64,000 nt of DNA from an uncultured Bacilli bacterium. Lineage in GTDB: Bacteria; Bacillota_I; Bacilli_A; RF39; UBA660. Under the pieces are notes generated by a model. It did not search any database. It was given only the letters and a program-made list of their open reading frames with translations, and was not told the DNA's origin. Shown here one piece after another: positions 5,630 to 50,541 of the stretch. The DNA is taken from the NCBI GenBank assembly GCA_947627805.1, contig CANQXB010000001.1, positions 24,836-88,835 of the forward strand, in the 5' to 3' direction. Numbering within the stretch: the first letter of the stretch is position 1; every line of letters starts with the position of its first letter. The position numbers and the translations under genes were made by a program.

Positions 5630-6166
5630 TTGGATAATCTTGTAAATTTACTGAGTCAATACTCCTTAGAGGGTATTATTATTTTTATTGTTATGATTAT
5701 TGTAGCTTCTAAATTTATATTTGAAACTATTGATTGGTTGTGGCAAAAAATAAAAATAAAAGTTACTAAAAAAAATGAAGAGCAAGAAAAAACAGAAGAT
5801 ATTGACCATTATTTTGAAAAAATAGATAAAAATTTTGAAGAAATTAATAAACGTTTTGATACAATAGATGCTCAATCGCAGCAAACAAATGAACGTTTAT
5901 CTTTTATAGAAGAACGTCAACAAGAAAATACTCGTTCTTATTTAATTGATGCACATCATAAATTCTGTTATGAAATAAAAGCTATAGATGATATAAACTT
6001 ACAATCTATGGAAAGACGATATATGTATTATAAGACTCAAGGTGGCAATAGCTTTATTAATGAATTAATGCAAGAAGTAAGACAATTACCAAGAGTTAAT
6101 CTTAGTCATCCAATATCAGATATTACCTTAGAAAACATTGATAATGAAAGGAGCAATGATGGCTAG
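5630..6166 (+). CDS. membrane-anchored coiled-coil protein (TTG start)
   Basis: N-terminal TM helix followed by a K/E-rich coiled coil; RBS GAAAGGAG 8 nt upstream of TTG. Confidence 0.45.
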   Translation: MDNLVNLLSQYSLEGIIIFIVMIIVASKFIFETIDWLWQKIKIKVTKKNEEQEKTEDIDHYFEKIDKNFEEINKRFDTIDAQSQQTNERLSFIEERQQENTRSYLIDAHHKFCYEIKAIDDINLQSMERRYMYYKTQGGNSFINELMQEVRQLPRVNLSHPISDITLENIDNERSNDG

Positions 6167-7148
6167 TACAGGTCAAAATGTTGCAGGAATCATGGAACAT
6201 CTAGTAACTCATAGCTCACATGGATACACCCAAGGTAATCGTTGGGGTAACGGGCGTACAGAAACTATTACTGTTAATGGACAGCAATATCAAGTTGCAC
6301 TAGGTGACCGCGATTGTTCTTCAGGTTGTATTAGTGCCTGGGAAGCCGCAGGAGTAAATTGTGGCGGTGCTACTTATACAGGTAATATGCGTTCTTGTAT
6401 GTGCGGTACCGGTAACTTTGTTTGGTATCCTGGCACTTCTTTTATCGCTAGTCCTGGTGACATGTATCTTAATGAAAATAACCATGTTGCAATGTGTAAG
6501 CAACAGGTACCAGATGAGTTAATGGAATTTTCAATTTCTGAAACTGGCGGCATCTTTGGTGCTGAAGGAGATCAAACAGGTTGGGAAAGTCATATTGCTG
6601 CTTATTATAACTATCCTTGGGATGGAATCTTACATTATGTAGGTAGTGATGTTAGTGCTCCTAATGTTGTGCAACCATCTATTCCTACTCCTTATCTAAC
6701 TTATAGAGCTTCTACAGATCCAAATGGGCAATATTGGTTACCAGAAATGCAAGATTGGCATGACACTGGTGGTTCTTCTGATGATTACGCAGGCGATGCT
6801 CTTAATCCAATTAGATGGCTTGCTATTCAAATGCCTGGTTGGTATCAAGTTAGAACTCAAGCTGGCGGTTGGCTTGTACCTGTTAGAGGATATAATATTA
6901 ATGATCTAGAATTTGGTACTGCGGGTGACGGTTCTCCAATTTTAGATGTAAGAGCATACTATGAAACCCAGAATCCCGCGGAAACTGGATGGCTAGGAAT
7001 TGAATATCAATGTGCTGACCTCAATGAAAATTGGCTACCACTAATGGTTGATTTAACTGATACAGGTGGCTCCGCAGATGACTTTGCAGGAGATGCTGAT
7101 AATCAACCAATTACTAAGTTTAGAGCTAGATTAGTTTCTACAGAATAA
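6138..7148 (+). CDS. putative cell-wall hydrolase with a Cys/His peptidase-like N-domain and a duplicated C-terminal repeat
   Basis: Conserved Cys (DCSSGC) and a later His (NHVAMC) resemble CHAP or NlpC/P60-type enzymes; two copies of W.P.M.D.TDTGGS.DD.AGDA.N.PI. Confidence 0.4.
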   Translation: MIMKGAMMASTGQNVAGIMEHLVTHSSHGYTQGNRWGNGRTETITVNGQQYQVALGDRDCSSGCISAWEAAGVNCGGATYTGNMRSCMCGTGNFVWYPGTSFIASPGDMYLNENNHVAMCKQQVPDELMEFSISETGGIFGAEGDQTGWESHIAAYYNYPWDGILHYVGSDVSAPNVVQPSIPTPYLTYRASTDPNGQYWLPEMQDWHDTGGSSDDYAGDALNPIRWLAIQMPGWYQVRTQAGGWLVPVRGYNINDLEFGTAGDGSPILDVRAYYETQNPAETGWLGIEYQCADLNENWLPLMVDLTDTGGSADDFAGDADNQPITKFRARLVSTE

Positions 7149-16417: not shown

Positions 16418-19400
16418 CCCATCTCTTATTAGTCATATCAAAGCTACCATCACTATGAATTTCTGTAATTTTATATAATTGATGCGAAGGAGTCTTGCTA
16501 TATGCTTTTGCTATAAACATATCTCCTCTTCTGTATCCATTTACAACTACTAAAGTACCTTTTGAGAACCAACTTGCTTCCCGCACTTTTTTTGTACCAT
16601 CTGGCATCACTTCACTTATGCGGCGATTATATTTTGCATAATAATCTCTATTAAATTTAACAAAAACAACTCCACTATTTGGTGTTAAAATAGATATGGT
16701 TGATTTTATATCATCTTTTGCTACTACAGTTCCCGCTATGCGGCAAGTTTCAAAAATAGGAATTTCAATACCACTTCTTTTAAAAGTATATTCTACAGGC
16801 GGATATTCTGGTAAATCTTTATATTCCCGCACATGTTCTAATTCTAGACGTGCTTCCCGCAATTCATGATCATGATAATAACAACCTAAACTATCCATTT
16901 CCCATTTTGATAATGAGCCTTCAGCATATTTTTTCCATTGCTCTTGGAATAATGCATCATTTAATTGTTCTAATAATTCAATTTTATGTTTTGTTATATA
17001 TTCTTTTGCGGGAGCCATAGCTTTATCGTAGCATTTCTTTTTCCATATTTCTTTATCTATTGCTAAATCATTATTAAAAGGTTCTAATAAATCAATATCA
17101 AAAAATTGTTCATAAAAATCATAATAATTATCTTTAATAATATATTTACCATTTTTTAATACATTTTTTAATGCTTTATTAAAAACAAATACTCTTTTTT
17201 GAAAATCTAACTCTTCTGGCAATAAATTTCTTTGATTTAAACCGTTAAAATTTTGCATAGTTACACGTTTTTTAGGTTCGCTGCATATGTTCATATAATC
17301 TTGCATTACTTCTATACGATTTTTAAATTGATCAAAAGCTCCAGCTTTAATCAAAGATACTATAACAGTTTTATTTGCAGAAGTTTTTTCTAAAACATCC
17401 TCTAATCCTTTATATGGACGATTATCTATAATCTCTTGGATAATCTCTCCACCAACTCCATTAAGTCCTTTCATTCCAAAAAGTATTTGATTATTTTCTA
17501 CGTCTGGTTCAAACATATATAATGATTTATTTATATCAATTAAAGATATATGAATACCATGGTTCATCATATTACCTACAGCTGTAGCAATTTTATCATA
17601 GTTTGTACTTGCATCTTCATCTAGTCCGCTATCTACTCGTAAACATGCAGTATTCCAATAAATAGGATTATAATATGTAGCTAGATAAACAGTCTGCAGC
17701 CCCACATATGAGTATGCCAAGGAATGGATCAGAGAGAATGAATATCCTAGTTGGATCTTAATCAACACTTCCCAAACATATTCTCCTAAAGCAGTAGACT
17801 TAGCTGATTCTAATACTTTTTTCTGAAGCTGCGGGATTTCCTCCATTCTTTTCTTTGCACAGACTTTCCTAGCCCAATTTGCATCCTCTAAGCTAAATCC
17901 GCAGATATCTGGATCCATTAAGATCATCATCATATCTTCTTGCTGCGCGGGCGTACCATAACTATCTTTACAATATTTCTCTAACACATGCTGTTCTGCT
18001 TTAGTTAAACCCCAACGATTCATTTCATCATACCATAAAAACAAATTATTTTTTAATCTTTGATATCTGTCTGTCGGTGTTTCGCCACCTTTTTCTTGAG
18101 CCATTAACCGCATAACAGAATTACAAGTTGCCATTTCTTTAGGGCTATGTGGCTTTAAAGTTTTGATAGTTTGTGCACCTACCATACTATCAAATTGAAA
18201 GAACTTTAGAATATTACCTGAAACTGCAGCTTCCCACAATTTTTCATCATTAATTGGCAATACATCTGGATGTAAATATTTATTATAAAGCTGTCGCAGA
18301 CTTAAATTTGCTTCTACTTCTTCATGTTCTTGAAGAATTTGGAGGCACTGGGTAATCACGTCCTGAATCTCTGTCACCAAAAAGTCATATTTAACTGATC
18401 CAACTTCCTCTTCGTCATGAAGAGAAAACTGCGTTGTGATCGCTCCATTGCGGGCCTTCATGAAACACGAAGATTCATATGGATCATCATCATAAAAAAC
18501 TACTCCAGATGCATGGATACCTCTACGTGAAATTAACCCTTCAATCTTTTCAATAATTTCTAATAGTCCAGGATATTTATTTACTTCTTGAATAAATGCT
18601 TTAACAGGTTTTCTATCTTTTTCTTTATTCCCATTAATAACATCAGAAATTGGCCATAAAAAACCTCTTTCTACAGGAATTAAAGATGACATATATTGAG
18701 CAATATCATTATCAATACCGTGCGGAAACTCCGCTGCACTATACCCTCTACAAGCTGTTACAATTGCTGACTTGGTTGATTCTGTACCATACGTACAAAC
18801 TTGAATACAACCTAATTTTCCACGTTCTTCTCTAATCCTGGCGAAAATTTCTTCTCTTTTGCTGGGGCAGATATCAATATCAATATCTGGCAATTCTGTT
18901 CGAGATTTATTTAAAAACCTCCAGTAAGGAAGAGCATTCTTCAGCGGGTCTAATTGAGTAATACCCAGCAGATAATGATTTAATCCCGAACAAGCGCTAC
19001 CTCTTCCAGCTCCAACAGTGCTCCCGCATTCCCAAATTAAATCAATATATTTTTGTAAGAAAATTGGATAACTAAAAATACAGGTTCCTAACTTTTCACC
19101 AATAAATTTTTGAATATCTGCTTCTTCTTCAAGCCTACTTAAATATTTATCATTATATAAATCAAGTTCCCGCAATTTATTTAAACAATAATTTACCCAA
19201 TATCTTTCTTGCGGATTGTTGCTATCCAAAAGTGAGTTAAGAACAGAATAACCAATATCTTTCTTGACTCTTGGGTAATCTGGTACATCTACTTGCGGGC
19301 AGTGCTGTTTGCGGGCAATGCTAAAATCTCCAATCTTACTATAAACTTCTAAAGTATTATTTTTTAATTCTTCATAATCTAAATCTGTATTTTTTAAATT

Positions 19401-34610: not shown

Positions 34611-34804
34611 TTTTGATTAAATTCACTACATCTATACCATGAACTATGAAGATAATCTTTAGTAAAACAAATACATTGCGGATTACACGAATCTCTTCTT
34701 AAGGGACACCATACTCTATCATCACCATATCGCTGATCTGGATATACATATTTAACTCGTCTAATTTTTGGCATACTGTTTTCCTTTTTGTGCTCGTTTT
34801 CCAA
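34580..34804 (-). CDS. small Cys-rich protein
   Basis: 74-aa ORF. Confidence 0.3.
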   Translation of the reverse strand: MENEHKKENSMPKIRRVKYVYPDQRYGDDRVWCPLRRDSCNPQCICFTKDYLHSSWYRCSEFNQNCLCVEEELT

Positions 34805-36968
34805 TAGGCAAAGATAATAAGTTTTTATCTTTTACAATTTTCACATCATAAACATAATCTCCATCTTTAAGACTAATCCCTTTAACACCTTTCGCACCTT
34901 TACCAGTTAGCCGCACGTCTTCCATTTCAAAACACAAACCTATGCCATCTTTTGTACGGACCTCCGCATAATCTCCGTTGGTCTCTTCTATCGCAACAAT
35001 TTCGTCATTTTCATTTAACCCAATTGCTTTAAGACCATTTAGATTGCGGGTATTAGCTATAAAATCACTTTTATCAGTCTTTTTAACTAATCCGTTTTTA
35101 GTAAAGAAAGCTATATAAGGATATTTTTCATCAATGTTCATTGAAAATATATTAACAATTTTTTCATTATTTGTCAACTTAATAAGAGCGCCGCACGCTT
35201 GACCTTTGTCACGTGGCCCGCATTCTTTAATATCGCTTGCTAAAATTCTATATTGTTTCCCAAAATTACTAAATAATAAAACAGTATCATTAGTTTGACA
35301 TTTAAATGTAGTTTTTGCTGTACTATTACGATACCGATTCATAGGAATAGACCGTATATAACCCGTATCTGTAAATTGAATAACTACATCTTGCGGGATT
35401 ACTATCTTTGCTTCTTTACTTTTGGAAATACGCTTAATCTCTTTTTGTGTCACTTTAGTGCGACGCTCGTCCGCAAATTCTTTAACTAATTGTTGTAATT
35501 CATTAGTTAAAATCTTTTTTTGTTTATTTTCTGATTCAATGATAGCTTGACAATATTTTGCATATTCTTCTTTCTCTTGGAGTTCTTTTTCAACCTTAAC
35601 TTTCTCTAAGTTAGCTAAACGAGATAATTTCATATCAAGAATAGCTTTAGCTTGCTTATCAGAGAAGCCATATTTCTCAATTAACTTACTCTGTGCGCTT
35701 GCCGCAGTATCACTGTGTTTAATAATTGCAACAATATTATCAATATCAGTTAATGCCTTAGACAGTCCTTTTAAAATTTCTATACGCGCGTTGGCAGCAT
35801 CGAAATCGTATTTGAAGCGATTCACGATAAGTCGCAGATTAAACGCGATATAATAATCAACCACTTGCGCTAAATTTAATAGAGTGGGTGATTTTCCAAC
35901 CAATGCAACTTGATTGACACTGAATGATTTGCGGAGATCTGTTAGATTAAAAAGAATCTCCGCCACTTGATCAATATCCGCATCTTTCTCAATTTCAAAA
36001 ACGATGCGGGGTTTTAGTAATTCACTTTCATCTTGTACATCTAAGATATGCGGCAAATTATCATCTGCATATTCTTTTGCAATTTTTTCAAGTAATGGCT
36101 GAATAAACACTTGAAATGGTAATGAAGTAAAAACAAGAAGTCTTTTATTCCCTCTAGTTTCTTCATGATATTCGCTTTCAACAATTACTTTACCACGTCC
36201 AGTTTTATAAATTGTTGCTATATCTTTTTGATTAACAATAATTCCTCCAAGAGGAAAATCAGGATAAAGATTATCATAATCAATTTCTTCATCGCGGAGG
36301 ACTGGCAGAATAGCCTTCTCCGCAATATCTCGTAAATTATTCGGCAGCCAGTTGCATGCAAGAGCTACGCCAATTCCTTGAGTGGGATTACAGAGTAAGT
36401 TTGGAAAAAGTGCAGGGAGCAGCTTTGGTTCTTCCTGTGTCTCATCATAGTTTGGTTGCATCTCAACTATATTTTTATTCATATATGCAAGCAGACCGTC
36501 TTCTGATAGTTTCTCAAGACGACATTCTGTATAACGAGAAGCAGCTGCGCCATCCCCTACGATATTACCTTGATTGCCATGCCAGTCAATTAATGGATAC
36601 CGCATACTCCAAGGTTGACTTAATCTTGTTAAGGCATCATAAACTGCGGCATCTCCGTGAGGATGCCAGTGTCCCATTACCGAGCCCACAACTCTGCCGC
36701 ACTTCACATAAGTTTTATTGTGAAATAATTTGGTTTCAGCCATATCATATAAAATGCGGCGAGCAACTGGTTTAAGTCCATCTTCTACCGATGGAATTGC
36801 ACGATCTGTGTTTACCGCAATAGCGTAGTCTATAAAATTTTGTCCTAGTTCTTCATTTAAATCAATCTCACACATAAATTTCAGCCTTTTCCGCATTTTC
36901 TTGTATAAACTTTTTGCGGGAAGTGCTATCACTTCCAAGCAGTGTATCAAATAATAATCCTGCCGCAC
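34761..36968 (-). CDS. type II topoisomerase subunit A-like (GyrA/ParC breakage-reunion domain)
   Basis: DGLKPVARRILYDM signature and active-site AASRYTE. Confidence 0.8.
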   Translation of the reverse strand: MRQDYYLIHCLEVIALPAKSLYKKMRKRLKFMCEIDLNEELGQNFIDYAIAVNTDRAIPSVEDGLKPVARRILYDMAETKLFHNKTYVKCGRVVGSVMGHWHPHGDAAVYDALTRLSQPWSMRYPLIDWHGNQGNIVGDGAAASRYTECRLEKLSEDGLLAYMNKNIVEMQPNYDETQEEPKLLPALFPNLLCNPTQGIGVALACNWLPNNLRDIAEKAILPVLRDEEIDYDNLYPDFPLGGIIVNQKDIATIYKTGRGKVIVESEYHEETRGNKRLLVFTSLPFQVFIQPLLEKIAKEYADDNLPHILDVQDESELLKPRIVFEIEKDADIDQVAEILFNLTDLRKSFSVNQVALVGKSPTLLNLAQVVDYYIAFNLRLIVNRFKYDFDAANARIEILKGLSKALTDIDNIVAIIKHSDTAASAQSKLIEKYGFSDKQAKAILDMKLSRLANLEKVKVEKELQEKEEYAKYCQAIIESENKQKKILTNELQQLVKEFADERRTKVTQKEIKRISKSKEAKIVIPQDVVIQFTDTGYIRSIPMNRYRNSTAKTTFKCQTNDTVLLFSNFGKQYRILASDIKECGPRDKGQACGALIKLTNNEKIVNIFSMNIDEKYPYIAFFTKNGLVKKTDKSDFIANTRNLNGLKAIGLNENDEIVAIEETNGDYAEVRTKDGIGLCFEMEDVRLTGKGAKGVKGISLKDGDYVYDVKIVKDKNLLSLPIGKRAQKGKQYAKN

Positions 36969-37272
36969 CTAAATCTTCAACAGTGATCTGTTTGATAATG
37001 CGATTATTTGGATCAATCAGACATTCAGCTGTTTCTTCTGCGCTTAATTCCCCAAGCCCCTTTAAGCGGCTGACTTGGTATTTGTCAATAGAGCGACTCT
37101 TTTTAAATTTTTGAAGAGCTGCATCATCTTTAAGATAAAGAATTTCTTTATTATTCTTCAAACGAAACAAAGGCGGTACGCCCGCGTAAATAAATCCATC
37201 TTGGAACATGTCCGGCAAGAAGTTCCAAAAAAACGCGTAGACCAGATTTTTGATATGCGCTCCATCAACATC
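36868..37272 (-). CDS. exon C (135 aa) of the split GyrB-like topoisomerase II ATPase/Toprim subunit
   Basis: In-frame upstream of the tracked ORF reads DVDGAHIKNLVYAFFWNFLPDMFQDGFIYAGVPPLF...KGLGE, the GyrB Toprim C-terminal signature. Confidence 0.7.
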   Translation of the reverse strand, partial: DVDGAHIKNLVYAFFWNFLPDMFQDGFIYAGVPPLFRLKNNKEILYLKDDAALQKFKKSRSIDKYQVSRLKGLGELSAEETAECLIDPNNRIIKQITVEDLGAAGLLFDTLLGSDSTSRKKFIQENAEKAEIYV

Positions 37273-37519
37273 CAGTGATTCTTATGTTTCCATAAGCCCT
37301 GACTATATCTTAATGTTATTACTAACACGATACCCATTTCAAACTACGTACCAATAGTAGTCTTACTCTCCCGATCCGGAGATAGTCGATACAGGTTTTA
37401 TCTTACCAGATATTTCCCACGGTATTACCATATGTTTTATACACTTAGGCTCCACCGTTAGCTTGCTTACACAAACCCTGCTGGTAAACAGAAAAGGTAT
37501 AACACAGCCAATATTACTT
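37273..37519 (-). mobile_element. ORF-less group I intron b (247 nt) in the topoisomerase gene
   Basis: Lies between GCT|AAGTAA and CACTG|GATGTT; contains P7-type GACTA...AAGATATAGTC; 5' and 3' blocks are homologous to intron a. Confidence 0.55.
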
Positions 37520-37753
37520 AGCATCGGACATAATTATAACTTTGCCATAGCGAACTTTATTTTTATCATACGCCAGCTTTTTGTCTCCTTTAGCTGGCTG
37601 GAAACCAAGAGCTTTAATTAAGTCCATAATTTCTGCGTTTGCCATTGCTTTATCCAATGTAGCTTTTTGAGTGTTTAGCACTTTGCCTTTGACACCTAAG
37701 ACAGCTTGAAACTCTTTGTCACGTACCGCTTTCAGGTTACCTGACGCAGAATC
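37520..37753 (-). CDS. hidden exon B (78 aa) of the GyrB-like subunit, not in the ORF track
   Basis: DSASGNLKAVRDKEFQAVLGVKGKVLNTQKA...VRYGKVIIMSDA matches the GyrB Toprim core (EGDSAGG...RYGKIIIMTDADVDG) and joins exon A to exon C. Confidence 0.7.
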
Positions 37754-38823
37754 CGTATTATCCTATATTTCTATAGGGACTGACTATTTCTTCGCTCTGA
37801 TTTGTCAAATCTTCAACGCGTCCTCTATTTCGAATTACGTATCAATAGTAATCCTACTCCCTCACAACAAGGGATAGTCGATACAGCTTATTTTATATCT
37901 TTATAAGTTTTTCTAAGCGCAATATTATAAATCGTGCTATAGACTTGAGTTAAATTAAGTTGTTTTTGAATTTGTTTTACTGATATTCCTTGGTCGTATA
38001 AATCTCTAATTTTTCTTACTTCATCAGGACTAAATTGTCTTTTGTTATTAGCAGCAACCTCATAAGGATTAGCTTTAGCTCTAGTAGCATGCCATTTTCT
38101 ATTCTCTTCAGTATAATATTCTGGATATACTTCTTTCCAAGTATCAAACCACCAAACTTTTTGTAATCCTCTTTTAGAAATTTTAGTTTTATACTGCTCA
38201 TATACGACTTTAAAAGGAATATGGTCATTATAACATTCTCTAATATACTTAACATCATCCAAAGTCAATAATGCGCGACCATTATTTTCTCCTTTTTGGC
38301 CTGGCTTTCCTTTGCTATCTGAACCACCAGGAGTTGCATTATAGCCATTGTAATAAGAATCATATTGATTAATGTATAATTTTTCAAGACTATCTAAAAA
38401 TTCTTGAGTATATTCATCTTGTGAAATCTCTACTAAAACTTGGAAATCGAAGTTATCCCATCCATATTTTCTTATTGCTTGATGAAATTGACTATTATAA
38501 TCTTGAGCTTGATTATTATATGCAGCATTTTTATGTTGAGACACTCTTCTTTGTATATTAATGCTTTGACCTACATAAACTTTTTGATTAATTTTATTAG
38601 TAAATTTATAAATTCCTATCATACACTACCTCCTTCATCGTTTATATATGAAAGTGATAATGTACAAATAACTCAATTTTACCCAAAGATATAAAACCTT
38701 GCCACGAGATTATCTTCGCCTAAACATATTTTGACGTATATGTGTAACGGTCAGACTTCCTCGTTAGCCTCATAAAGAGACCCCTGCGATAAACAGGAAA
38801 AAAGGATAAGGGCAATTCCATTT
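37754..38823 (-). mobile_element. group I intron a in the topoisomerase gene, carrying a GIY-YIG homing endonuclease
   Basis: Exon A ends ELIITEG|; intron ends GGATAATACG|GATTCT; P7-type GATTA...AATAGTC. Confidence 0.65.
37888..38622 (-). CDS. GIY-YIG homing endonuclease, intron-encoded
   Basis: MIGIYKFTNKINQKVYVGQS...R...H...E GIY-YIG motif; own RBS AAGGAGG. Confidence 0.8.
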   Translation of the reverse strand: MIGIYKFTNKINQKVYVGQSINIQRRVSQHKNAAYNNQAQDYNSQFHQAIRKYGWDNFDFQVLVEISQDEYTQEFLDSLEKLYINQYDSYYNGYNATPGGSDSKGKPGQKGENNGRALLTLDDVKYIRECYNDHIPFKVVYEQYKTKISKRGLQKVWWFDTWKEVYPEYYTEENRKWHATRAKANPYEVAANNKRQFSPDEVRKIRDLYDQGISVKQIQKQLNLTQVYSTIYNIALRKTYKDIK

Positions 38824-40149
38824 ACCCTCTGTGATGATGAGCTCACATTTAGAACGATCAGTGCTATAGCAGTCAGATAATTTAGACGGCAAATTAATAT
38901 TTTTTTGTTTTATAACACCAGTTGTTGATGTTTTCTTCCGCACATTCTCTCGTGCTCTTTTCGCTGCTTCCGCAGCTTTCCGCGCTAATAATGCTTTATC
39001 AATAATCGCACGCCCATCCGCGGGATTATTATCTAACCAAAGTTCTAAATTCTTTCCAATAGCCTCATTAAGGAAAGAAACAAATTCATTGCTAACAATG
39101 CGGGACTTCACTTGTGCATCGTAAGCAATGCCAGGTGATACAAGATTAAAGATAAATACTAATCCTTCTTGAAGATTAGCTCCTTCTAAATTTTTATCTT
39201 TTTCCTTAAGAAGCCCTTGCTCTTTCGCCCATTTATTTAATGTGCGAGTAATACAACTCTTTGCTGCTGTTAAATGTGGGCCTGCGTCAGTTAAACCATA
39301 ATTGACATACGCTACAATTTTACTACTATTGTTTGAAGTATATGTAAGCGCCGCGTCTAGTTTTCTTTTTTCACTTTGCTCTTGGAAAATTAATTCACTT
39401 GTAAGTGGTATAGTTTTTTCAATTTCTTTATCTAAAAAATCTTCAAGTCCTTTTGGATGACTAAAAATTTTAATTTCAGAATCCCATTTTAATTCAATTA
39501 TTAATTGCGGACACAAAATAGTAATATCATCTAAAAAAGATTCTAATGCTTTTCTATCAGGTTCAATATAAGAAAAAAATTCTTCACTTGGCTGAAACAC
39601 AATTCTTGTTCCTGAAGGAGATGAATATTCATCACTTATACTATTGATATTATGTATCTCTATATCTGTAAGGCATCCTTCATTATACAAGTCTCGTTCC
39701 ATCCTACCCTTTTGCCAAGATTCAACCTTCACATAATGAGACAAATATATTGGCAATTTTGCGCCAATACCATTAAGACCAAGACTGGTACCTTCATATA
39801 CTCCATCATCACGATACTTGGCAGAAGTGTTCATTACACTAAAAGCAGCTTCAAGGACAGTTTTTCCATCTTCTCTTTTTTCCCCTATTGGAAAACCTTG
39901 TCCTTCATCTGTCACACTAACAAACAGATTTTGATTATTATCTTTATAAACATGAATATAGATTTTGTTCCCATGACCGAGATTATGCTCATCTACTGCA
40001 TTACTAACTAACTCTACAATCAAATGATTGGGGTAAGTAGTATCGCCGCAATATACGCCAGGTCTTAATCGAGTAAACTCTAATGGAGATAATGATTCAA
40101 TACTATTTTTATTATACAAATTTTCCAAATTTTTCTTCACCCCTTTCAA
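38824..40149 (-). CDS. exon A (442 aa) of the GyrB-like subunit: GHKL ATPase, transducer and start of Toprim
   Basis: HLIVELVSNAVDEH GHKL motif; the ORF tail after ELIITEG is intron read-through. Confidence 0.75.
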
Positions 40150-40183
40150 GATATTATTATTATAACATTTTAATAGTAATTTA

Positions 40184-40645
40184 TCAAGCGGGATTTGTTT
40201 CTTTACTTTCTTGTTGTTTTTTCATTTTTTCTCTAAAATCTCGACGAGCTTTAACAACTTTGTCACAAAACATATACTCTTTTTGTGACATATTATCATA
40301 TTTATTTTTAGTTTTCATATACTCTTTATAAGCACCTTTGACTTGCTGCTTCATTGCATTAATCATAAGTTTTTCTTCGCCAGTTAATTTAATAGTTTCA
40401 TATTGCTGTAAGATATGTTCATAAAGATTTTTTGCTCCTAAATAGCGTTCCCGCATTTTATTGCGGTGAAGTTTAGCAATTTCTTTATTACAACGAAATT
40501 CACAAATGCGGGCACCATCCCATTGATTTGCAATATCTAAATCATCTGGATGAACAAAAGCAGCTCCTTTTACCATTCCATAAGGTGAACTTTTTTCCAT
40601 AAAAGATGCCCCATTAGATGTGTAAGAAAAATCAATTTTAGGCAT
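40184..40645 (-). CDS. hypothetical protein
   Basis: 153-aa ORF. Confidence 0.45.
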   Translation of the reverse strand: MPKIDFSYTSNGASFMEKSSPYGMVKGAAFVHPDDLDIANQWDGARICEFRCNKEIAKLHRNKMRERYLGAKNLYEHILQQYETIKLTGEEKLMINAMKQQVKGAYKEYMKTKNKYDNMSQKEYMFCDKVVKARRDFREKMKKQQESKETNPA

Positions 40646-46800: not shown

Positions 46801-46895
46801 TGGTACACGCGGAGGGACTTGAACCCCCATCGTGCGCTAATCTGGCGCTTATCTCGGGTATAAACCGAGCGCTCTGCCCATTGAGCTACGCGTGC
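46801..46895 (-). tRNA. atypical 95-nt tRNA with a 24-nt variable arm and apparent anticodon UAU
   Basis: GCACGCG-TA-GCTC/AATGGGCA/GAGC-G-CTCGG/TTTATAC/CCGAG, then variable arm with GCGC/GCGC stem, then GGGGG/TTCAAGT/CCCTC-CGCGTGT-A-CCA; identity uncertain. Confidence 0.6.
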
Positions 46896-46954: not shown

Positions 46955-48145
46955 TTAAACTGCCTTAAAATTATAAATAGGAGTTAATTGCTCAGTTATA
47001 ACAAAACCATTACGAGTTAGGAGTTCTTCTAATGCTTTACTACTATTATATGTATTAGGAGCTTCATCTAATGTAGACTCAGTAACACAACTAGAATAAA
47101 TTCCATTCATTGATGCCTTATATGACTCTATTTGCAATAGTAGATGTGCGGCTGTACGTGACATTACACGACCAGCCCCATGCGGCAAACTATTATTCCA
47201 ATCTTCGTTCTCACACCCTTCGATAATAAGTAGTCCATCCCGCATATTTAACGGAACTAGACATCTCGCGTTTGTACAGTCGATAGCACCTTTTCGCACT
47301 ATATGATTATCTACATCAACGTAATTATGTAAACTTGTTGCAACTATAGAATAATTATAATAACCTATTAACATATTGGCCATAGCAATATGACTTACTA
47401 AAGACCAATTTGCACAAACTAACATATCATTTAAATAATCATCTAAATCATTACCTTCAATATAAGCTAAATCAGACTCTAAAGCATACTTTTCAATTTG
47501 TATTCCATGTAACATATCTAACATCTGGCTAATTAATTGTTCTTGATGCGTCTCTTTCCCATATGAAATAACAGCTTCCCGCATTGTTTTAAGTAGGTTA
47601 CCTTTACTTTTGGATTTTTCTACAGCAATTTTCTGATAAAAATTACAAACTTGTACTCCTAAATTGCGGGAACCACTATGTATAACAAGATAAACACGAC
47701 CATTGTCATCTACATCTAATTCGATATAGTGATTGCCTCCTCCAAGAGTGCCTTGAGAATTGATAATACGTTGATGATTACTAATATAATCCCAACACAT
47801 CAATTCATTATAATCAAAAGAAGAAACAGAATGATTATGAATATTTCTTCCTGTTGGAATAACAGAACGTACTTTTTTATCAAATTTATCTAAATCTGTC
47901 ATATCTTCTAAGAACCAAGGGGTTTCAAATAGCGATATGCGGCAACCAATATCAACTCCTACAGTATTAGGACAAATCTTATCACTAAATGTAGAGGTAA
48001 AACCAACACAAGACCCTTTACCCGCATGCGCATCTGGCATAATGCGGATTTTCTGGTCCACATACGCAGGACTTGCCGCAATTTCTGCAACCTGGTCTAA
48101 TAGTTTTTTGGTTTTATTTAAAGCAAAATTTTTAACATCAGTCAT
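46955..48145 (-). CDS. rtcB: RtcB RNA 3'-phosphate/2',3'-cyclic-phosphate ligase
   Basis: MPDAHAGKG, GVDIGC, GGGNHYIE and HSGSRNLG RtcB motifs; start moved to ATG 48145 behind RBS AGAAAGGGG. Confidence 0.8.
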   Translation of the reverse strand: MTDVKNFALNKTKKLLDQVAEIAASPAYVDQKIRIMPDAHAGKGSCVGFTSTFSDKICPNTVGVDIGCRISLFETPWFLEDMTDLDKFDKKVRSVIPTGRNIHNHSVSSFDYNELMCWDYISNHQRIINSQGTLGGGNHYIELDVDDNGRVYLVIHSGSRNLGVQVCNFYQKIAVEKSKSKGNLLKTMREAVISYGKETHQEQLISQMLDMLHGIQIEKYALESDLAYIEGNDLDDYLNDMLVCANWSLVSHIAMANMLIGYYNYSIVATSLHNYVDVDNHIVRKGAIDCTNARCLVPLNMRDGLLIIEGCENEDWNNSLPHGAGRVMSRTAAHLLLQIESYKASMNGIYSSCVTESTLDEAPNTYNSSKALEELLTRNGFVITEQLTPIYNFKAV

Positions 48146-48178
48146 AAAAAAAATCCCCTTTCTTAACAATATAAATAT

Positions 48179-48229: not shown

Positions 48230-49250
48230 GGTTAACGCCAAGACACTGCAAAACTTGGCGGATGTTAGCAGGCGGTGAGCCTATGATTCGTTTATATAAA
48301 CAGGCGGAGTACTTACTATCGACTATATGATCTTTCTCCGCGTCATATTTAACGTGTGACCAACCACGGTAAGCGTTTAATTTTTTTGACTGTTTATTTT
48401 ATTAATTATTAAATATAGATTTACAAAACTCTTAAACTGACTTTCGCCATACTCGCAAGCCCGCATAAATATTCAGCCACGTAGGAGATAAGTCTGACTC
48501 ATAAGGAGCGACCTTATAAGTTCTTACCCCGGCATCTTACCATATCTACGAGTGGATTGGTTACCACTAACTTTCACCCACCATTCAGAAATTGAATGGG
48601 ACTTTTTCCTCAAAAGCCAAATTAATTATTATTTAGTCTATTAATCTTCCTCAATTTGGGCTACTCGCTCTTTGAACTTTCCTTATAGTTAATTACTTAG
48701 CATCAACGAGGAAACTTACTTATTTGGATTCCCTAACGTACTATGAGGTTCCACCCTCATGCCTAATTAGGGTTCAAAGGTGCGCTGCACCCGCCTATTA
48801 CGCAAGCGGAAAGATAAAGCCTTTTTATACGAAACTCTTTTGAGCGCCATTCTCTTTTGTTGGAAGTTTCTTCCTTCTGCGACTTGGTTACCTGCTGCCG
48901 CAATGTCCGCCCACGATAAAAGTATCCTTTTATCGGACAGGCACTTAAGGGATGCCCCTGACCGCATGGTATTGCGCATGCACAAGGTTGTAAAGAGTTT
49001 TGTAAATCTATATTCAATTTTCAATTTACATTTTAGGTACCTTATTTTGTAAGGCACCTAATGTGGGGCATCTATTTTGTAGACGCCCCACGTAAATGAC
49101 TTAACATTAAGTCATATAAACTACTGCCCTATGATGTAGTTTACACCCAGCAACCCTCCGCTGCCCTGATAACCCTTCCCAGTAACCGATTGATTTGCAG
49201 AACGCAGGCTCAATCACATAGAACAGATCGTATGTTTAGTTTAAAGCCTT
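48230..49250 (-). ncRNA. candidate large structured non-coding RNA (about 1 kb), unclassified
   Basis: No ORF over about 95 aa on either strand; local GC far above the genome background; 12 or more strong hairpins (for example CCGATAAAAG-tatc-CTTTTATCGG, GTGGGGC...GCCCCAC, ATGACTTAA-cat-TTAAGTCAT, CCATTCA-gaaatt-GAATGG); two tandem consensus promoters directly upstream. Confidence 0.4.
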
Positions 49251-50249: not shown

Positions 50250-50541
50250 ATTTATTCCTTTCTTTTGGAATAAAAATTTTTTTCTGGTGGAGCTGCTGAC
50301 TTACGATAGCCAGGTCCTAACATACTAATTACTAAATCCTTAATATAATCTAAAAGATAAAATTAGTTAATAAATGTGCCTTTTAATGATTCTTCCTCGC
50401 ACGTAAAAGGCATCGGTGCGAGGTATAGGCTTATGCTGCCATTGCAAAATTAAATTTGTCAGTTAATTTTTTAAAGGTGATTACAGATTTAGCTTTCATA
50501 TCCTAGTCGAATCCTTTCAGCCCCTTTCTCATTATATTAAT

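Follow-up and report, generated by a model that had tools for sequence, protein, structure and literature searches.

A phage GyrB/ParE-like topoisomerase gene probably interrupted by two group I introns, one with a GIY-YIG endonuclease gene

The window analysed here is a stretch of 64,000 nucleotides (nt) from an uncultured Bacilli bacterium (RF39; UBA660; assembly GCA_947627805.1, contig CANQXB010000001.1, positions 24,836-88,835 of the forward strand). It carries genes of a large uncultured phage, among them a minus-strand gyrB/parE-like gene for the B subunit of a type IIA topoisomerase. This gene consists of three in-frame exons (A, B and C) with inserts of 1070 nt and 247 nt between them, and it is very probably interrupted by two group I introns, whose removal by self-splicing would give a functional subunit of 654 amino acids (aa). 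The joined exons align with uninterrupted homologues residue for residue at both junctions, and both inserts match a covariance model built from other phage introns. This arrangement had been proposed in an initial annotation made from the letters and their open reading frames (ORFs), the coordinates and sequence statements of which are correct to the base, apart from the length of the product and the visibility of exon B; its placing of both inserts in one family agrees with their shared core and with their match to a model derived from other phages.

Exon-intron organization of the gyrB/parE-like gene

The features of the gene, all on the minus strand (-), are as follows.

40159-40187 (-): promoter-like site 5' of exon A, TTGATA-17-TATAAT with TG before the -10 element, sigma-70-like (11/12)
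38824-40149 (-): exon A, 1326 nt, GHKL ATPase and transducer (Pfam HATPase_c and DNA_gyraseB), ending ELIITEG with codon GGU
37754-38823 (-): intron 1, predicted group I intron of IA type, 1070 nt, endonuclease ORF in the P6 loop, terminal G37754
38623-38823 (-): 5' ribozyme segment of intron 1, with P1 guide, P3 5' strand, two hairpins, P4, P5, P6 5' strand and endonuclease leader
37888-38622 (-): GIY-YIG homing endonuclease gene, 244 aa, intact ORF
37754-37887 (-): 3' ribozyme segment of intron 1, with P6 3' strand, J6/7, P7, P7.1, P7.2, P3 3' strand, P8, P7', P9 and terminal G
37520-37753 (-): exon B, 234 nt, 78 aa, in frame, Toprim core DSASG...IIMSDA
37273-37519 (-): intron 2, predicted compact ORF-less group I intron, 247 nt, terminal G37273
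36868-37272 (-): exon C, 405 nt, DVDGAHI...PPLF...KGLGE, end of Toprim and GyrB C-terminal domain, stop TGA at 36870-36868

The ORF at 38770-40149 (-) continues after ELIITEG for 17 further codons (KWNCPYPFFLFIAGVSL) until its stop. Exon B (37753-37520) translates as DSASGNLKAVRDKEF...RYGKVIIMSDA, and exon C (37272-36868) as DVDGAHIKNLVYAFFW...PPLF...KGLGE..., followed by the stop; the three exon lengths are each a multiple of three. That the Toprim exon is invisible to the ORF track, as had been claimed, holds for its 5' part, whereas its 3' part lies in a 55-aa ORF that starts at an internal GTG. The start of exon A is uncertain, with TTG 40149, GTG 40140 and TTG 40128 as candidates. The promoter-like site, which is a consensus match only and the top sigma-70-like match of the region, is consistent with a single transcript over all three exons. 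The three-exon allele is found, identical, in several independent assemblies.

The joined exons encode a continuous GyrB/ParE-like protein

Joining the exons gives a protein of 654 aa plus stop, a continuous in-frame product as first proposed, if not of the 655 aa then given. It contains HATPase_c, DNA_gyraseB, Toprim and DNA_gyraseB_C in this order, all four above their Pfam cutoffs, and Toprim (PF01751) forms one continuous match at residues 436-541, across both junctions. The alignment with uninterrupted GyrB/ParE proteins, which had been suggested as a check, is single and colinear and covers 97-99%. For comparison, 20 relatives with 43-56% identity were fetched from IMG/VR; both junctions are uninterrupted in 19 of these, and in about 31 of 33 metagenome relatives that span the region. 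With a slash marking the junction, here and below, ELIITEG/DSASGN stands residue for residue against EIYITEGDSAGGN of the uninterrupted homologues, and IIMSDA/DVDGAHIKNL against IIMSDADVDGAHIKNL; the predicted ligated sequences read ...ATCACAGAGGGT/GATTCTGCG... and ...ATGTCCGATGCT/GATGTTGATGG.... Because the joined product has one continuous Toprim domain and this residue-for-residue alignment, the match between the exons and uninterrupted homologues lies far beyond chance.

The equivalog cutoffs of NCBIfam are not reached, the best score being 485 bits against 740 for NF004189 ('DNA gyrase subunit B'), with 445 against 882 for TIGR01059 (gyrB) and 406 against 900 for parE_Gpos. For this reason the predicted host protein is called GyrB/ParE-like, an assignment to either gyrase or topoisomerase IV not being possible from these scores. 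A scan of metagenomes for close relatives gave a best identity of 58%, and thus no presence/absence polymorphism within the same phage species. The region had no megablast match among GenBank phages, and tblastn with the 214-aa fragment of exons B and C gave no named GenBank phage above 50% identity.

Covariance models support two group I introns

The covariance model R1 was built from seven compact introns and included no sequence of the window. It matches intron 2 over its full length (37522-37268) with 202.2 bits (E ~2e-72), and intron 1 in two halves, the 5' half (38826-38610) with 51.9 bits and the 3' half (37955-37749) with 79.9 bits; no other convincing match is present across the 64-kb window. 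A match at 18538-18617 (-) with 13.5 bits (E ~0.002) was dismissed as most likely due to chance, the DNA polymerase ORF there (1272 aa) being continuous. The general Rfam model Intron_gpI (RF00028), used in E-value mode, also matches both inserts, the score being 44.2 bits (E 1.8e-9) for intron 2 and, for intron 1, 23.3 bits (E 0.0035) over its 3' part. Together with the covariation described below helix by helix, these matches agree with the two group I introns of the initial annotation.

Membership of this intron family suggests that both introns splice. For self-splicing itself the support is indirect and consists of the predicted ligation, which would restore EGDSA, DADVDG and the continuous Toprim match.

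RNA structure and splice sites

The full scheme, written on intron 2, comprises P1, P3, two hairpins, P4, P5, P6, P7, P7.1, P7.2, P8 and P9. Across an alignment of 55 family members, pairing in each helix amounts to 85-100%, the positions show 3-6 pair types each, and pairing breaks down once the registers are slid. In an alignment of 12 members, 88.6% of cells are paired as compared with 73.5% after shuffling (0 of 500 shuffles being as well paired) and ~40% in slid registers; both sides change in 41 of 62 pairs, and the covariation score is 0.466 versus 0.176 for shuffled and 0.08-0.13 for slid alignments. RNAalifold on 12 compact members predicts 44 pairs, 30 of them with compensatory changes. 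Owing to length variation P1 and P8 are weak in the 12-member MAFFT alignment, and both are well supported in the 55-member alignment.

All helices are formed in intron 2, and both introns keep all invariant core positions, including the P7 pairing of GACUA with UAGUC, which is invariant in the family alignment. P7.1 (98-100% paired) and P7.2 (87-100% paired, with up to six pair types) are present as hairpins in both introns, and their position, after the P7 5' strand and before the P3 3' strand, points to subgroup IA. The 5' layout differs from the td-type IA2 order P1-P2-P3-J3/4-P4, being P1-P3-hairpin-hairpin-AA-P4: the P3 5' strand, backed by covariation, follows directly after P1 with no P2 between them, and two covarying hairpins precede P4 (alignment A1, columns 29-34/355-360 and 38-84). 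The 5' architecture of the family is thus possibly a variant one.

The splice-site features noted in the initial annotation, that is, inserts beginning AA(A/G)U after an exonic U, ending in G and containing P7-like pairs, are all found, intron 1 starting with AAAUGG and intron 2 with AAGUAA. In intron 1, U38824, the last base of exon A, is the U·G wobble partner of the internal guide; P1 pairs GAGGGU/AA with UUGCCCUU, a terminator scan also giving an 8-pair stem, and P10 can be read from the sequence as 3' exon GAUUC with intron GAAUU directly 5' of the P1 guide. In intron 2, P1 pairs GCU/AA with UUGGC, and P10 reads as 3' exon GAUGUU with intron AAUAUU. The 5' splice-site U·G wobble is found in 50 of 55 family members, and changes in the exon are matched by changes in the guide (exonic GGGU with GCCC, GGAU with GUCC, GGCU with GGCC, UGCU with GGC). 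Applied to the related locus L003, the rule that places the boundaries after the exonic U and after the terminal G gives the conserved KGLGE, whereas a naive boundary taken from the protein alignment gives V.

The GIY-YIG endonuclease of intron 1

The ORF of intron 1 occupies the P6 loop, with its stop codon abutting the P6 3' strand and with a Shine-Dalgarno sequence (GAAGGAGG) 8 nt before its ATG. In agreement with the homing endonuclease first proposed, the product passes Pfam PF01541 (42.6 bits, cutoff 22.6) and NCBIfam TIGR01453 'group I intron endonuclease' (74.1 bits, cutoff 56.05). It aligns with the I-TevI catalytic domain (PDB 1mk0/1ln0; E 3.5e-4), with GIY, YVG (YxG), R, H, E and N present at the respective positions. 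A weak C-terminal helix-turn-helix (HTH) at aa 195-232 scores below the cutoffs of both HTH_7 (19.2 bits) and HTH_38 (18.2 bits), and PDB 2lvs matches the same region (E 0.0086). Identity is 63% and 55% to the endonucleases of introns at the same site in loci L066 and L105, respectively, as against at most 41% for relatives in GenBank phages. It is a divergent I-TevI-type enzyme, presumably with a new target in universally conserved sequence, its activity and target being predicted from family membership.

An intron family of phage topoisomerase genes

The 14-mer CTGTATCGACTATC (J6/7 and P7 5' strand), common to the window introns and the L003 intron, led to at least 120 IMG/VR loci (labelled L). 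Among the matches listed there, the 3' core profile has 108 matches, with a 5' core upstream in 74; in most members the cores are 820-1050 nt apart, a distance that indicates an ORF in the P6 loop, and ~14 are compact like intron 2. When the same 14-mer was searched in bacterial and archaeal genomes, 5 of the 120 loci listed were real and the rest chance matches; the five are from Ruminococcus, Lachnospiraceae and Spirochaetaceae metagenome-assembled genomes (MAGs), one unclassified MAG and one more, mostly rumen/gut Clostridia MAGs. Since nearly all 14-mer matches on viral contigs are real, as opposed to these five, the family is overwhelmingly phage-associated.

In ~35 of the intron-bearing IMG/VR loci, among the matches listed, the intron lies in a gyrB/parE-like gene, at recurrent sites, four or more in number.

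EG/DSA: L066, L105, L174
DA/DVDG: L032, L035, L043, L047, L071, L097, L108, L137 and others
KG/LGE: L003, L030, L048, L089, L128, L132 and others
about residue 129/130: L139

Occupancy of these sites is sporadic and a two-intron allele unusual, because, when the gene clade was sampled by protein similarity, introns were found only in L003/L168 and L174.

Introns 1 and 2 are 60.5% identical, the family median being 58.8%; since random members of the family resemble each other as closely, they are independent acquisitions, with no local duplication. The core of intron 1 is closest, among the matches listed, to those of L105 (79%) and L066 (77%), both at the same EG/DSA site, while the host proteins of these loci are just ~43% identical and their endonucleases 55-63%. 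Such lineages of intron and endonuclease at one site in diverged hosts would constitute an indirect signature of mobility. Intron 2 is closest, again among the matches listed, to L040, L032 and L047, the latter two at the same DA/DVDG site. L032 has the exon and guide sequence of intron 2 plus a GIY-YIG ORF, on account of which intron 2 is placed, as an ORF-less member, in an endonuclease-bearing lineage.

Several further observations concern individual members. At L003 (5700-6727; same contig as L070 and L168) a 1028-nt insert with ends resembling those of intron 1 lies at KG/LGE of a homologous topoisomerase gene, and its GIY-YIG ORF is in two pieces (5889-6131 and 6366-6584), which appears to reflect decay of the endonuclease. 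Directly upstream of 32 of 55 introns (loci L003-L140) stands exonic GGGU (guide GCCC), and of eight more UGGU, a strong preference for insertion after glycine-type codons. Several family introns can occur within a few kb, with two in L105, three compact ones in L130 and three each in L038 and L050, and the L105 topoisomerase gene has introns at both EG/DSA and KG/LGE. The sole blastn match of intron 2 is one of 62 nt in an unannotated gap of Enterococcus phages EF1 and EF5; in EF1 (L141; MF001358.1, 139900-139961) it is 83% identical to the intron 2 core from P6 to P7.2 and lies between two coding sequences annotated as 'hypothetical protein'; possibly this is an intron that annotation missed in a cultured Enterococcus phage.

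Alternative explanations

The inserts might stay in the RNA, with the fragments translated separately and assembling as T4 gp39 and gp60 do after insertion of MobA. The precedent concerns the same enzyme and the same domain, MobA always inserting in the Toprim domain of the T4-like topoisomerase large subunit, with halves that still assemble (PMC2988022; bioRxiv 10.1101/2022.08.31.505936), and separately called pieces of the gene do occur in public assemblies. Here, however, an in-frame TAG lies four codons before exon B and a TAA three codons before exon C, with no start codon between these stops and the exons and no Shine-Dalgarno sequence at either exon 5' end; the first usable starts, GTG 37681 and TTG 37218, would lose DSASG... 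and DVDG.... Moreover, the breaks fall inside motifs and lack the added terminal extensions typical of MobA elements, the inserted ORF is of the GIY-YIG and not the HNH type, and a conserved, covarying ribozyme fills exactly the non-coding parts, so that separate translation is very unlikely. Less probable still is an insert of a different type, such as an intein or group II intron, or one passed over by translational bypass. Inteins are known in GyrB, and in T4 gene 60 the equivalent region contains a 50-nt bypass; yet the frame stops at once in intron 2 (a lysine codon, then a stop) and after 17 codons in intron 1, which rules out an intein read in frame. All three frames of intron 2 contain stops, domain searches found neither intein (Hint) nor reverse-transcriptase domains, and the inserts measure 247 and 1070 nt, not 50 nt, both matching group I models. 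On these sequence grounds this alternative can be considered effectively refuted. Separate translation and bypass were also the outcomes that the initial annotation had named as contradicting it, and both are disfavoured by the stops and missing starts just described.

The introns could also be real with ribozymes that have decayed and no longer splice, leaving the topoisomerase B gene of this phage a pseudogene. Intron 2 has lost any endonuclease and has a short P1, and decay does occur in the family, as shown by the broken endonuclease ORF of L003. Against this, both introns retain all invariant core positions and helices, the exons contain neither stops nor frameshifts and keep every catalytic motif, the gyrA partner gene and the translational coupling to it are intact, and the three-exon allele is unchanged in several independent assemblies. 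A dead gene is thus improbable, if marginally less so than a gene translated in pieces.

Several results weigh against two functional, self-splicing introns. No spliced transcript was found, the exact 29-mers of the spliced junctions had no matches in IMG/VR, and no near-identical uninterrupted protein across both junctions was found, the best having 67% identity. The scan of the whole window with Rfam at the gathering threshold (50 bits for RF00028) matched neither intron, so that the Infernal search put forward in the initial annotation fails at default settings and succeeds in E-value mode; for the L003 intron Rfam returned nothing even at E <= 1, though this intron is clearly in the family. 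In intron 1, P3 is short, AU-rich and ambiguous in its register in the alignment, and P1 of intron 2 has just three exon pairs and two intron pairs. A single-sequence minimum free energy (MFE) fold of intron 2 reproduces most helices, and its energy is unremarkable (z = -1.73), 12 of 200 shuffles folding equally well. Because of this last result, the structural support is called comparative, not thermodynamic. As for Rfam, the alignment to RF00028 deletes P3 of the window introns: the P3 5' strand sits elsewhere in this family than in the model, which is why P3 is dropped and the scores fall below threshold.

Predicted splicing and mobility

In the interpretation as two self-splicing introns, one pre-mRNA of the phage type IIA topoisomerase B gene would hold both IA-type introns, each folding to a core P3-P9 with the P3/P7 pseudoknot and the IA-specific P7.1 and P7.2. 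The internal guide would pair with the last bases of the upstream exon, with the exonic U·G wobble in P1, and two-step, guanosine-initiated transesterification would remove each intron up to its terminal G, while P10 keeps the downstream exon in line. Joining the exons would restore EG/DSA (the Toprim catalytic Glu motif) and DA/DVDG (the metal-binding DxD motif), and the 654-aa subunit would work with the GyrA-like subunit encoded next to it under translational coupling.

Intron 1 would be a complete mobile element, its I-TevI-like endonuclease cutting intron-less alleles, in which the junction would read ACAGAGGGT/GATTCTGC, near the EG/DSA codons in mixed infection, and the intron being copied into the cut allele by recombinational repair. 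Intron 2, having no endonuclease, would spread only passively, for instance by co-conversion with intron 1, which is 234 bp away. This route of spread is the one that family membership suggests.

A broader proposal can be made only tentatively and is less likely to be right than wrong: IA-type phage introns without P2 and with two hairpins between the P3 5' strand and P4 would form a distinct, undescribed structural lineage, specialised on the topoisomerase B gene at four or more (at least four) conserved-motif sites through guide-directed ectopic insertion after GGGU (glycine codons), and the two-intron allele could allow exon skipping. Such skipping, to a Toprim-less isoform, could be permitted by the 234-nt in-frame middle exon and by the GAU start shared by both 3' exons, the A-C junction then being GAGGGT/GATGTT.

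Relationship to known systems

The T4 td intron is, as predicted for intron 1, a self-splicing group I intron with P7.1/P7.2 in a gene that a large lytic phage needs for its DNA metabolism, and holds a ~245-aa GIY-YIG endonuclease between the ribozyme halves that ends just before J6/7-P7. Its 3' core is homologous to that of the window family (R1 23.6 bits, E 1.5e-8), with the common strings CGACUAUCCC...GGGAGUAGGG...CGAAA...AUAGUC. The relationship is distant, only the 3' core scoring; the td host gene is thymidylate synthase, as opposed to topoisomerase B, and the 5' half is arranged as P1-P2-P3(UCUAUC)-UAAA-P4, in contrast with the window family, where P3 directly follows P1 and two hairpins precede P4.

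Orf142 of Staphylococcus phage Twort is reported to contain three group I introns in one gene. It and other multi-intron phage genes resemble the present one in having several related group I introns per gene, with and without endonuclease ORFs. In the Jug phages, with a mean of 18.5 introns per genome, terL, nrdD and polymerase genes are split, and metatranscriptome reads support splicing of 37 of 76 predicted introns; topoisomerase IV, in contrast, is among their intact core genes (PMC12880540). Subgroup IA is the dominant type among viral group I introns (PMC11835236). In the Bacillus cereus group, nrdE and nrdF have IA-type introns with GIY-YIG endonucleases (PMC2248736); they share with the window gene the combination of IA and GIY-YIG, several sites in one replication-related gene, and occurrence in Firmicutes and prophages, the host gene differing in being ribonucleotide reductase.

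In T4 gene 39/60, the MobA homing-endonuclease element targets the Toprim domain of the topoisomerase large subunit and splits its metal-binding site (bioRxiv 10.1101/2022.08.31.505936). The window gene has in common with it a mobile homing-endonuclease element in a phage topoisomerase Toprim domain. The T4 case, however, involves an HNH enzyme (MobA) and no ribozyme, with a permanent split into two ORFs, terminal extensions and ribosomal bypass, whereas the window gene has a GIY-YIG enzyme, neither extensions nor independent starts, and a predicted repair by RNA splicing.

A 2014 review gives polymerases, ribonucleotide reductases and terminases as typical hosts of phage group I introns, and in our literature search no group I intron was reported from a topoisomerase or gyrase gene of a phage. 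Phage DNA-metabolism genes are classical hosts of group I introns with GIY-YIG enzymes, and multi-intron genes are known; it is the host gene that is new. The B subunit of type IIA topoisomerase joins the short list of phage genes hit by group I introns, with its Toprim catalytic motifs as a recurrent landing zone, in parallel to the unrelated T4 element of MobA and bypass. The 247-nt intron would be a small ribozyme with a non-td 5' layout, and the endonuclease is of interest as a tool. The value for annotation is clear and the scientific surprise moderate.

Annotation and genomic neighbourhood

Gene callers cut the essential gyrB/parE-like gene into pieces of 455, 43 and 113 aa. Dozens of public protein clusters of ~214 aa, with 'Toprim plus GyrB_C' as their only content, represent exons B+C of genes split at site 1 (L189-L192, P0063-P0120); contigs >100 kb and NCBI records are among their sources. 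For L189, the caller starts on the terminal AUG of the intron, giving M-DSASGN.... Phage topoisomerase genes are under-called in annotation because callers split the gene, the fragments are orphaned, and default Rfam sees neither intron.

Directly downstream lies the partner gene.

34761-36875 (-): gyrA/parC-like gene, uninterrupted, Pfam DNA_topoisoIV (407.7 bits) and DNA_gyraseA_C

Its probable ATG (~36875) overlaps the gyrB stop (ATGTGTGA; read from the sequence). The window represents the replication module of a large uncultured phage, with PolC-like polymerase, NrdD, RecJ, DnaB, RtcB, endolysin, tRNAs, tmRNA and ROOL RNA. The ROOL RNA at 48418-49011 (-) is full length (RF03087, 324.7 bits, gathering threshold 99.1), lies between tRNA genes and adjoins the RtcB-like ligase gene. 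A tmRNA match at 50285-50524 (-) with 49.8 bits (Rfam threshold 47), not called by ARAGORN, may be a degenerate or unusual phage-borne tmRNA. Finally, a tRNA-Ile(UAU) of 95 nt at 46801-46895 (-) has a 21-nt hairpin insert in its variable region, unusual for tRNA-Ile, and is located directly downstream of the homologue of the RtcB 'tRNA splicing ligase' (phrog_1075; ORF 46955-48169 (-)).

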